Positions 12,601 through 16,081 are shown, counted from the first letter of the stretch. The stretch: 64,000 nt of DNA from Schmidtea nova (GCA_044892505.1 CM097883.1:258478001-258542000), one strand, 5' to 3'. Made by a program: numbers and translations. The notes: generated from the sequence alone by a model not told the origin.

Positions 12601-13826
12601 ACAGGAAAATGTGGCAACCACCATCTTGTCTCACGAAATTCGTTCTCTGCCAACACCCTGATATACCCTTTTCGCACGTAGTCATTGATCACCTCTTTGT
12701 AGCTTTCTTTTAACCTACTGTCTTTCGCCAACCGATTGCCTAGACTCCTCAAACGTGTCTCCGCCATTTTCATATTCTCTTGCAGTTGATACTTGTTCTC
12801 CTTCCATAACAAGCTAACCGTGAACCTTCCATCCTCGCACGACATACCTTCGATCGCCCTTTGCATTAATATTTCTTCGCTCTGGCTGAACTGATTCTTT
12901 TCAATGTGAGTTTCCTCAATTTCCCAAAATTGCCGCATCTGGTTCTCCAAACTCTCTGACTTGGAAAAATAACTCTGGACAAAATGGGAGTGTCGTGGAG
13001 CTTTACCCCTATCGACTTTGCCCAGACATGTCCACCCGAGAGGCGTCAGTCTTGCAACTGGCTCATCCCTCATCCTTCCTACTTCTCGAATCGATCTGTG
13101 CAAGTGTGGATAGTCTGCTCCAATTAGAACATCTATCTGCGGTCTTTCTCCAAGACTCGGGAATCGAATGTCCTTTAGGTGCTCCCAGTTATACGCCAAC
13201 TTCTGCCAATTGCATGCCTTTAAGTCCCCCGTGACACTTTTGACGACCAGAGCCTTAAAGCTGACTTTCACCTTGTTGTTACTGCTTGCCAATATCACTT
13301 GTATCGGCTTTGTTTCTAACATTTCCGATTTCCCCCCGATCACGCCTACTGGCATATTTTCCCATCGTCCCCCAGCCTCTAATCTCTGAGCGGCCCAATC
13401 GCTAATGTAACTAACATTACTTGCATCGTCCAGCAATGCATTTACTCTTACCCTCTTTCCCTTCGCTTCTAACACAATAGGTATTGTCCTGAGGCTTATA
13501 TAACCGAAATCATTTAACTTTCTAGTTGCAACTAGCCGAGTGGTATGCGTTTGCGGTCTTGGATTGCTATCCTCTTCTGATTCCTTCCCTCTTCGAATAT
13601 GCAACAAATTATGATGCTTTCCTCCACAGTCTTTTTCCTTACAAAATCCTGGTCTGGTGCATTCTCTCACTCCATGTCCTTTCCTTAAGCAGTTATAGCA
13701 TAATCTCCACTCTTGAACTAACCCTTTTCTTTCATTTACTGGCAATTGTTTGAATTGTGAGCATTGATCTAGATAATGGGCGCCCGGACATTGGAAACAC
13801 CTCGGCCAGCTTTGACCTTGTTGCAT
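9591..13826 (-). pseudogene. pol: BEL/Pao gag-end + pol (zinc knuckles, protease, RT, RNase H, integrase, DUF5641-like tail)
   Basis: [27 protein letters not shown] and CKEKDCGGKHHNLLH knuckles; ALLDDAS protease; YMDD RT; IFVDASKCAYGAVAY RNase H; VDYAGP/SDNGTNFVGA/FGGVFE integrase. One in-frame TGA at 11772 (likely ex-Trp) and one frameshift near 13820. Confidence 0.95.
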
Positions 13827-16081
13827 GACTTTTCCTTCCCCCCTTCACTCGAGTTCTGTTTCCCTTCACCGCCCGAGTTCGTAAAGTGTGAGTGCCTTCT
13901 ATTGTCATTCCTTTCGGAAGCCTTGAAGTTCTTCTGCCCGTACTGCCAATTAGAATCTTTCTCACGCCCAAATCCATACAATATCTCATTTGTCGATCGC
14001 GTAAGATCAGCTTCGTTTTGCAGCCACCTTTTTAACCGGGTTATTGATTCTTCCCCTTCATCTTTCGCTTGCTCTCTTTTCCATCGAATAAGTAGCGCAG
14101 CTGGCAATTTCTTTAACAATTGTTGCAAGAGACAGCCTCTCTGTAAGTCCTCTTCCCTTCCGATTGCTTTAAACCGTACCTCCATTGACTCCAACAATCC
14201 AACGAAAACATCCAAGTCTTTCATCTCTCCTTCGCGAATTGGCCGAAATTTCTCTACGGTCTCTAACATGGTCAGATAACTACGTTCTTCACCTCCGTAC
14301 CGCCTTTCTAATTTCTCTTTCGCCATCTTGTAGCCATCGGCGGTATAACCCAGTGGCTCTATCATTCTCAGTGGCTCTCCTTGCAAGTACTGCCTAAGAT
14401 GCAGCATTTTATCTTCGGCTGTTCCATCTGCCGTATCTATTACCGTATTGAAGGCCGCTTTCCACGTCTCAAACTCGACAACTTTCCCATCGAAAATCGG
14501 AATCTTTATTCTCTGCAACCGATTTAAACTCTTCTTTTCTCTTGGCGCCTCATATTCCGATGTCTTTGACCCCTCGCTCACAACACTTTGTTCTGTTCTT
14601 TTTTGCATTATCTTATCTATCTCTTCTTTTTTTGTTTCGAGCTCACAGATATCTTTTTCCACTAATTCTAACTCCTCCTTCTTGTTTAATTTGTCACACA
14701 ACTCGACAAGTCTTAGCCACTCGTCCAATGTATCCTCAAACTCTTTTTCATATAATACAAGTGTGTCCTTTATTTCCCCGACCATTTCTGCCAACAATAA
14801 GTTACGCGCTCGAGTTACTTTCCATTTTTTAGATCGCCGACGGGTCCATAAACTTTTGAACTCTTCCTCATCATTACCACCTCTTAAACGAAGAACAAGA
14901 TGAAGAGTGGATTCCTTTTGTATGTTGTAATCTGCCAAGATTCTTCCGTCCTCCAATTGTTTACCCGCAAATATCAATCTCTGTTGATCAGGTGGGATTC
15001 CCTCTTTGTCTTGAATTTTCGTTTTTACCTTTTCTATTGTGTCCCTTGATTCAACTTCCAGGGTAATAGTTTTCCCTGTTAACGTTTTTACAAATATTTG
15101 CATTCCCCCTTCCATTCTCAAAACTAGACCGAGAGTTGATTCCTTGGTGGTAATAGCCGTATTTCGATTAATTAACTTACTGATAACGCCGCCCCGAGTT
15201 TCGACACCCAACGAAAGCGGTGTAACATCTAGCAATAATACATCAATCACATACTCAGCAAGAACTCCTCCCTGTATTGCTGCACCCATTGCAACAGATT
15301 CATCTGGATTCACACTCTTACTAGGGACTCTACCGAAAAGTTTCTGTACAGTTTCTTGAACTTGAGGCATTCTTGTCATCTCACCAACTAACAACACTTC
15401 TTTAATGCCCGATATTTTTACCTCTACATCTTTAATACCTTTTTCACAAGGTTCAATTGTTCTCTTAATTAGGTGCTCCACTAATTGCTCTAACTTCGAC
15501 CGTGTGAACCTTAAACTCAACTGTTTAGGTCCTGTATTATCCATCGTCAAATATGGAAGATTAATGTCCGTTTGAACAGCTGATGACAATTCAATTGTAG
15601 CATTTTCAGCTGCTTCTCTAACTCTCTGTAAAGCCAGAGGGTCTTCATTAACATCAACGCCTTGACCACACTTAAATTCATAAAGAATATATTGTAAAAG
15701 CACATTATCAAAACCTTCCCCACCCAAAAACGTATCCCCACTTGTAGATTTTACAGCAAAACTATTATTCAGATTTTTTATATAACTATCTCGCTTTAGC
15801 TTAATGATTTCCCAGTTGAAACACCCATAATTGATTTTAAATCCATAGTTTTTAACCTCTCGCCCTATCTCTCTAATCATCGCTGTATTATACATCATTT
15901 CTTTTGGAACACACCCCTTATTCACACAAGCCCCACCCGTTTTATTTTTTCCAATTAAAGGAACAGATCTCCTAAATCCATCTGTTCTCCTGGCTATTTC
16001 GTCCCCCAATTGAAAAGAATGCTGGGGCCCATAGCAGCATCTTTTCTGGTCCCCTAATGGACCCAACCCACCGCAAAACAT
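13769..16081 (-). CDS. gag: Chimeric ORF1: glutathione reductase fragment - mtHSP70 fragment - ubiquitin tail - ubiquitin - BEL Gag
   Basis: Uninterrupted frame, first ATG at 16081 (frame open to 16201). The Gag part has the BEL-type [21 protein letters not shown]...[13 protein letters not shown] region. Confidence 0.9.
14876..15103 (-). other. Complete 76-aa ubiquitin moiety ending LRLRGG, fused to Gag
   Basis: [76 protein letters not shown]. Six differences from canonical animal ubiquitin (P19S, S20R, N25K, A28T, T55I, S57A). Confidence 0.97.
15143..15760 (-). other. Captured intronless mitochondrial HSP70 (mortalin/HSPA9-type) fragment: NBD lobe II, linker, start of SBD
   Basis: [16 protein letters not shown]...LQRVREAAE...[18 protein letters not shown]...[35 protein letters not shown]. 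Confidence 0.93.
15767..16006 (-). other. Captured glutathione reductase (class-I pyridine nucleotide-disulfide oxidoreductase) fragment
   Basis: [19 protein letters not shown]...YGF...[18 protein letters not shown] parallels GGTCVNVGCVPKKVMWNTA...FNW..IK.KRD.Y; the redox CxxxxC is intact. Confidence 0.85.

Follow-up and report, generated by a model that had tools for sequence, protein, structure and literature searches.

In the BEL/Pao survey (PMC3118150), the Flow superfamily of these long terminal repeat (LTR) retrotransposons takes in planarian families. One product of LTR-mediated retroposition is a chimera of two genes carried by BATUMI, a Pao element (Tan et al. 2016, PMC5131818, where maize Bs1 is also cited), and in the cytopathic bovine viral diarrhoea virus (BVDV) CP Rit, which carries S27a-ubiquitin-NS3, the insert is cleaved by host ubiquitin hydrolases (PMC8310069, PMC13517609). 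Burro/GYPSM1 (PMC6431247) is a giant planarian gypsy element of 25–30 kb with an N-terminal Gag and an internal ubiquitin-like motif. Here, we analysed a stretch of 64,000 nt from Schmidtea nova (GCA_044892505.1 CM097883.1:258478001-258542000; hereafter the window, to whose positions coordinates refer unless named otherwise) that contains a copy of a BEL/Pao family in which pieces of glutathione reductase (GR), mitochondrial HSP70 (mortalin) and ubiquitin precede Gag in one reading frame. Comparison of this copy with its relatives shows a single frame that runs from inside the 5' LTR through the host pieces and ubiquitin into Gag, and we consider it probable that host deubiquitinases cut after the terminal GG of ubiquitin, freeing Gag(-Pol) with a fixed N-terminus.

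The open frame of the window copy spans 16303–13769 on the minus strand, as do all features of the element, and comprises 844 codons from stop to stop, or 770 counted from the ATG at 16081. The primer-binding site (PBS) TGGTAGCAGAGCGTGGTT (16281–16298), taken by us to resemble initiator tRNA-Met, lies inside this frame; other copies have a 5' LTR ahead of the PBS, whereas a comparison of flanks found none in the window copy. It is followed by an element-derived in-frame leader that extends from the PBS to the GR junction and contains the ATG (15995–16300), a GR mRNA fragment (15761–15994), a mortalin mRNA fragment (15146–15760), a degraded tail left from the C terminus of an upstream ubiquitin (LRMEGG; 15104–15145), a full ubiquitin ending in LRLRGG, with a predicted deubiquitinase site before Gag (14876–15103), and the BEL/Pao Gag (DUF1759; 13845–14875). 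Pfam searches matched HSP70 at residues 181–391 (E = 2.5e-77), ubiquitin at 403–474 (E = 4e-29) and DUF1759 at 604–746, in agreement with a sequence-only reading of the window that had placed HSP70, a complete LRLRGG ubiquitin and Gag in one frame; the GR piece gave no match in the Pfam search. The same reading had described a stop-free frame of 770 codons. This frame is indeed open from the ATG at 16081, but in copies with a 5' LTR it begins in the LTR, and its end at 13769 follows a frameshift, such that the final residues of the 770-codon open reading frame (13769–13844) are off-frame. Because the window copy is damaged, 770 codons reflects this copy only and not a natural length.

The 1.7-kb leader was searched against the genome and the best 40 of 1914 candidates were scored. 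All 40 matches, spread over three chromosomes, carried the complete leader at 96–100% identity; the sequence-only reading had proposed a search for such copies, and the family does carry the leader. A leader set of 40 copies was assembled from 39 of these matches and one copy found via its 3' end. Direct LTRs with TG...CA ends, a PBS and a polypurine tract were found in family copies, the LTR pairs being mostly 99–100% identical; both ends were scored for 35 copies, 30 of which had a 5-bp target duplication. ATT/AAT microsatellites hosted 30/35 copies, and the other five all showed the 5-bp duplication; the insertion preference for (ATT)n/(AAT)n microsatellites was strong, for example in the flanks of L023, L029 and L110. 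Reverse transcriptase was missing in 39/40 leader-set copies, in which Gag was followed by an acidic low-complexity tail that, in a longer type, came after Cys-His boxes and a protease. A search with pol gave 40 matches at 88–100% and added 38 further copies, of which, as a summary count, 20 had the full set of GR, HSP70 and ubiquitin, 12 had partial sets and six had none. Seven of these 38 kept one frame from the PBS through reverse transcriptase, and in 30 of the 49 retrieved copies with the Gag type of the window copy the frame of ubiquitin extended without a shift to the Cys-His boxes, which rules out a programmed gag-pol frameshift at 13,840 as a family trait.

The order gag-protease-reverse transcriptase-RNase H-integrase was confirmed, together with Pao-type DUF1759, Peptidase_A17 and DUF5641 and three Cys-His boxes, domains of diagnostic value for BEL/Pao. 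Judged by these domains, their order and the LTRs, PBS and polypurine tract of family copies, the element is a BEL/Pao LTR retrotransposon, as the sequence-only reading had held; its family is recently mobile and high in copy number. Among the loci L087–L124, near-identical pol sequences (94–100%) occurred with either of two strongly divergent kinds of Gag and with LTRs of many types, a pattern of modular recombination among elements. Head-to-tail tandem arrays of the element with periods of 4–5 kb or 7.4 kb were also observed (G000:C3:86546081-86560477, G000:C2:10831250-10860634, L092 and L116).

Selection was examined by counting variants against the window copy across 41 copies, with shared variants taken to reflect replicating lineages. 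Ubiquitin had four nonsynonymous and 13 synonymous shared variants (ratio of nonsynonymous to synonymous polymorphism per site, pN/pS, 0.09) and Gag had 40 and 62 (pN/pS 0.16), whereas HSP70 had 70 and 17 (pN/pS 1.23; Fisher p = 1e-5 vs. ubiquitin); for GR the counts were eight and four (pN/pS 0.5, p = 0.28, not significant). Spectrum-weighted values were 0.12 for ubiquitin, 0.23 for Gag, 1.65 for HSP70 and 0.67 for GR. No stops occurred among 123 shared leader substitutions vs. 5.6 expected; both shared indels and the single large deletion were multiples of three, and the four frameshifts were each private to one copy. A single apparent shared stop in Gag was a double-substitution artefact. 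The LRLRGG end was present in 41/41 copies with Asn as the next residue, and a proline after GG was found in none of the lineages seen. At the R74 position of the upstream ubiquitin tail, which the sequence-only reading had noted and which is present though degraded, 38/41 copies had E or K and three had G. Among 26 copies picked without regard to the leader, 23 had a distance from PBS to GG that was divisible by three (17 of 20 distinct lengths, 447–2148 nt). Ubiquitin and Gag are under purifying selection, HSP70 is without detectable constraint and the reading phase is selected, in line with the earlier suggestion that read-through rather than GR or HSP70 function was being maintained. The frame reached the 3' LTR in 29/40 leader-set copies (a count that takes in the one with reverse transcriptase), and the acidic tail of non-autonomous copies was unconstrained (68 nonsynonymous and 15 synonymous, pN/pS 1.06), which together hint at selection for a fully translated RNA that would, for example, avoid nonsense-mediated decay. 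An in-frame count of 24/24 for the acidic tail holds by construction and was given no weight.

The leader cargo was traced to host genes. The GR piece aligned with the host GR gene over three exons, at 83–90% nucleotide identity, and lacked both ~53-bp introns; its CVNKGC motif, earlier called intact, is a substituted form of the host CVNVGC in which the cysteines are retained, while the GR origin itself held. The HSP70 piece was 92% identical in nucleotides to the host mortalin gene and lay wholly within one host exon (628-codon open frame). Of the 120 matches listed for it, mortalin of Dugesia japonica had the highest identity (83%), which makes a dugesiid planarian the most likely host. Since this donor region is a single host exon, the reported absence of introns is informative for GR but uninformative for HSP70. 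Microhomology of ~9 nt with one mismatch was found at the GR/HSP70 junction, the HSP70/ubiquitin-tail junction fell at a common KES-coding stretch, and a junction between a methyltransferase piece and the LTR (below) also had microhomology. Intron loss in GR and microhomology at these junctions establish capture via RNA.

The ubiquitin had a different history. At the DNA level it was only 74–82% identical to the repeat units of polyubiquitin at three host loci, yet 71/76 residues were those of the host protein; this ubiquitin was captured long ago and has been preserved by selection. A pattern search for the ubiquitin junction gave 36 matches in the genome, seven of them in tandem polyubiquitin genes, and the 12 loci that were read comprised two host polyubiquitins and 10 related elements, several of which were Ub-Ub-Gag elements that had neither GR nor HSP70 and shared the upstream leader motif. 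Five ubiquitin-junction matches ~33 kb apart at G000:C1:590835000-590968133 represented an old Ub-Ub-Gag copy within a larger tandem duplication. The simplest order of gain would be Ub-Ub-Gag first, with HSP70 and GR later taking the place of most of the first ubiquitin. Ubiquitin-Gag is old and clade-wide, and GR and HSP70, which can be lost by in-frame deletion, appear to be later, dispensable passengers. The sequence-only reading had proposed serial template-switch capture of host mRNAs; RNA-mediated serial capture stands, given the intron loss and microhomology, but the four pieces do not form one series of equal standing.

The larger feature, which that only partly supported interpretation had missed, is that the frame starts inside the 5' LTR, in swapped host pieces, and not at 16081 in copies with a 5' LTR. 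The same frame was open for at least 50 codons upstream of the PBS into the LTR in 66/68 PBS-bearing copies (median 197), whereas the other two frames were open to this extent in 0 and 5 copies. In the window copy, the coding part of the LTR (8556–9321, ATG at 9207) is of the MNESENE type, whose frame continues across the PBS to the leader wherever a copy has a 5' LTR. Pfam searches of 15 representative LTR peptides found HECT in six, TCP-1 in two (one together with HECT), ABC_membrane_2 in four (two weak), a complete N6-adenine-methyltransferase-family domain in one, a weak EF-hand in one and no useful match in two. The calmodulin piece (96–98% to host) included the host 5' untranslated region and start codon and lacked the first intron, and the N6-adenine-methyltransferase-family piece (~99% to host) lacked two introns, kept the start codon and was joined to the LTR just before the host stop. 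Of the HECT matches in the genome, ~110/129 scored covered the same N-lobe fragment, and 8/8 checked matched the LTR; the HECT donor gene was absent among the 12 best non-LTR HECT loci. Donor genes of the TCP-1, ABC and MNESENE pieces were not located, and an ESM Atlas search with the MNESENE peptide gave no usable match. Going by these matches, the coding part of the LTR is swapped among host mRNAs, namely those of calmodulin, HECT, TCP-1, an N6-adenine-methyltransferase-family gene and an ABC-transporter piece.

The methyltransferase-type LTR had 21 near-full matches in the genome (96–100%). The host gene is locus L145; L139 (G000:C1:144219489-144220488), a previous candidate, was rejected as an interrupted LTR copy, its methyltransferase cargo being broken by an insertion carrying inverted HSP70-like and LTR sequence. 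The L100 LTR and its relatives contain an essentially complete host coding sequence of this Pfam family and could yield a fused, folded enzyme.

Beyond this genome, a word-based homolog search gave a single match for the Gag query and was dominated by polyubiquitins for the ubiquitin-Gag query. Ubiquitin or its tail stood directly before Gag in six of 151 public Gag relatives (Gag identity 28–40%), with the GG end in five of the six, and an HSP90 fragment preceded ubiquitin in P0127. In a quick Gag tree of 108 rows, mostly unnamed proteins, into which 104 of the 151 public proteins were long enough to enter, all ten ubiquitin-bearing rows fell in one 12-row clade (Shimodaira–Hasegawa-like approximate likelihood ratio test, 98); the other two rows were a short protein and P0130, whose sequence starts with the tail FKLKGG. 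Ubiquitin thus probably marks a deep BEL/Pao Gag clade.

Under the mechanism that we favour, transcription would start inside the LTR, a few hundred nucleotides from its edge, and ribosomes would initiate at the first AUG that they meet, in many cases one taken from a host mRNA. From there translation would run through the cargo into ubiquitin-Gag. Host deubiquitinases would then cut after the ubiquitin GG, as for ubiquitin-NS3 in BVDV CP Rit (PMC8310069), and the released leader-ubiquitin would probably be degraded. The ubiquitin junction would free Gag from dependence on whatever is translated upstream, and because the start of Gag would be fixed whatever precedes it, in-frame template switches would be tolerated. 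Switches of reverse transcriptase onto co-packaged mRNAs (PMC5131818) at microhomologies would survive when the frame is kept, captures in the U5 part would be copied into both LTRs, and GR and HSP70 would be passengers in place of most of an upstream ubiquitin. Release of the capsid by host cutting at ubiquitin would thereby explain the tolerance of cargo.

Several observations weigh against this mechanism. Asparagine, the residue after GG, would be an N-degron residue on the released Gag. A second Gag type in the genome has a more divergent ubiquitin that ends in LRLNGG in 21/21 cases and is under weaker constraint (15 nonsynonymous and nine synonymous, pN/pS 0.47, p = 0.08, from an alignment with one divergent row; the HSP70 row of this type was discarded, the upstream segments being different and misaligned), and P0125, one of the public relatives, has no GG. 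Variants in GR are too sparse to tell neutral from constrained evolution. The leader-set copies, as best matches, are young and biased to be indel-free; copies not picked by the leader also keep phase, and thus give the same answer as this young-biased set. Constraint across the whole ubiquitin fits a non-cleaved role too, in which ubiquitin would stay on Gag as a binding or sorting module for ubiquitin receptors, ESCRT or the proteasome. We regard such a role as quite unlikely, although the element ubiquitin, which probably keeps the ubiquitin fold given its identity to the host, retains all seven lysines and the L8/I44/V70 patch, and an internal Ubi2/SUMO-like motif occurs in Burro polyproteins (PMC6431247). 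The GG end is retained across a deep clade while the remainder diverges, and an unconstrained leader of 400–650 residues on each capsid subunit is hard to square with assembly. A canonical LRLRGG-X bond is, moreover, normally cut fast by host enzymes.

Other explanations place selection on the cargo. It is possible, if doubtful, that in this old BEL/Pao lineage a host-cleaved ubiquitin separates Gag from all that lies before it and the LTR and 5' leader act as an open cargo slot that swaps host 5' ends, start codons and whole coding sequences, with a host-like front selected against small-RNA silencing or to tune translation. Camouflage or hostage-taking, in which cargo is selected as RNA or DNA because its likeness to essential host mRNAs such as those of calmodulin, mortalin, TCP-1 and ubiquitin blunts PIWI-interacting RNA (piRNA) silencing or makes it costly, and the ubiquitin junction is merely permissive, seems to us unlikely. 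The idea has been raised for maize (10.1101/777037) and planarian LTR elements are piRNA targets (PMC8532177); the cargo also occupies the promoter-proximal LTR, is renewed quickly (calmodulin and methyltransferase pieces at 97–99% to host) and has spread to many copies, as the HECT N-lobe and methyltransferase-type LTR counts above attest. However, abundant mRNAs are also those most often co-packaged, so that donor identity requires no selection, and the cargo is free to diverge, as in HSP70, and has been deleted in several copies. That the GR and HSP70 pieces serve the element as a chaperone, redox aid or dominant-negative decoys is very improbable and already largely refuted: the pieces are full length in 20/38 pol-bearing copies, a piece of another chaperone, HSP90, occurs in one public relative, and the comparison of HSP70 with the host gene that the sequence-only reading had called for gave a dN/dS of 0.54, but this value takes in the host's own silent changes, pN/pS among copies is 1.2–1.7, conserved motifs are substituted, in-frame deletions differ in extent and relatives lack GR and HSP70 altogether. 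The damage and non-canonical ends of the window copy might have suggested a one-off chimera or an assembly artefact in neutral decay, a reading refuted by the copy matches and variant counts; the 40 full-length matches on three chromosomes, near-identical LTR pairs and 5-bp target duplications all speak against it, and contigs of four public runs covered all 30 bins.

Downstream of the Gag frame of the window copy, Pfam searches of two frames identified reverse transcriptase, Peptidase_A17, integrase and DUF5641. The three Cys-His boxes, the aspartyl protease motif (ALLDDAS) and reverse transcriptase with YMDD are all present at 11775–13844, followed by an in-frame stop at 11772–11774, the RNase H/Peptidase_A17 region, integrase (zinc finger and core) and DUF5641 (9594–11771), the polypurine tract (9611–9625) and the 3' LTR (8556–9610; 1055 bp, TG...CA), after which TTTCTGG is the start of an LTR-PBS junction. 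Damage thus comprises loss of the 5' LTR, the 3' LTR alone being retained, a frameshift near 13,840, where two frames overlap, and the stop. The insertion ends (8529–8555 and 16301–16487) are non-canonical, with short templated-looking tandem repeats on both sides and no normal target duplication; these repeats, together with TTTCTGG after the 3' LTR, suggest insertion of a cDNA fragment through end-joining. At 16085–16115 (plus strand), directly before the ATG at 16081 and ~6.5 kb from the true polypurine tract, lies GGGGGAAATGTTTCAACC, which resembles the polypurine tract and LTR start in reverse complement; similar sequence occurs in other family copies. The element sits inside a high-copy, decayed Maverick/Polinton-like repeat (7578–8528 and 16487–28700), whose two sides were contiguous in 14/14 other copies examined; by eye, this repeat contains an A32-like ATPase, an integrase with chromodomain and a PolB-like region, and its left flank had 3208 first-look candidates in the genome. 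Elsewhere in the window, nested long inverted repeats with arms 85–94% complementary (729–7192), probably a foldback or terminal inverted repeat element, and tandem arrays with periods of ~14, ~131 and ~156 nt (61281–63952) were observed.

Literature searches aimed at ubiquitin-Gag in retrotransposons listed no description of such an element, although Repbase Reports (a planarian BEL family is cited in PMC3118150), subscription journals and supplements may mention one. The word ubiquitin was absent from the main text of the BEL/Pao survey (PMC3118150), a planarian genome paper and a planarian PIWI paper (PMC8532177), and the available portions of PMC9289625 and PMC13465017 held nothing on such an element. 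If our favoured mechanism is true, this retrotransposon entrusts the initial processing of its Gag to deubiquitinases of the host, and one gain, a cleavable ubiquitin, opened continual gene capture in elements that still have pol. Because the captures form a graded series with known donors, the family allows tests of how template switching works, of what host sequence costs an element and of the camouflage idea, in a host that offers an accessible piRNA system. The many false HECT, HSP70, calmodulin and ubiquitin copies in the genome can mislead annotation, expression counts and the design of RNA interference.

There are precedents for capture of mRNA by LTR elements, including Pao, and for processing through ubiquitin in pestiviruses; it is their combination that we did not find described. 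The family resembles other BEL/Pao elements (PMC3118150) in its LTRs of 0.7–1.1 kb, length of 4–8 kb, gag-PR-RT-RH-IN order and Pao-specific Pfam domains, and differs in the ubiquitin-GG directly before Gag, the coding LTR and the host-derived in-frame leader. With Burro/GYPSM1 (PMC6431247) it shares a planarian LTR element with host-like domains in one polyprotein, including the Ubi2/SUMO-like motif there; the element does not belong to that group, being 4–8 kb long, of BEL/Pao type by its domains, with a canonical ubiquitin N-terminal to Gag and unconstrained cargo. As in cytopathic BVDV (PMC8310069, PMC13517609), captured host sequence and ubiquitin stand right before a viral-type protein, but there the arrangement is recurrent in short-lived RNA-virus variants, whereas here it is an old, clade-wide retrotransposon trait in which cleavage is predicted. 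The likeness to LTR-mediated retroposition (PMC5131818) lies in partial mRNAs, intron loss (here two in GR, one in calmodulin and two in the methyltransferase-family gene), microhomology junctions, several donors and later amplification. In that system the retrocopy takes the place of part of the element's open reading frames, whereas here cargo has been added upstream in frame, also within the LTR, on pol-bearing copies whose Gag is under purifying selection.

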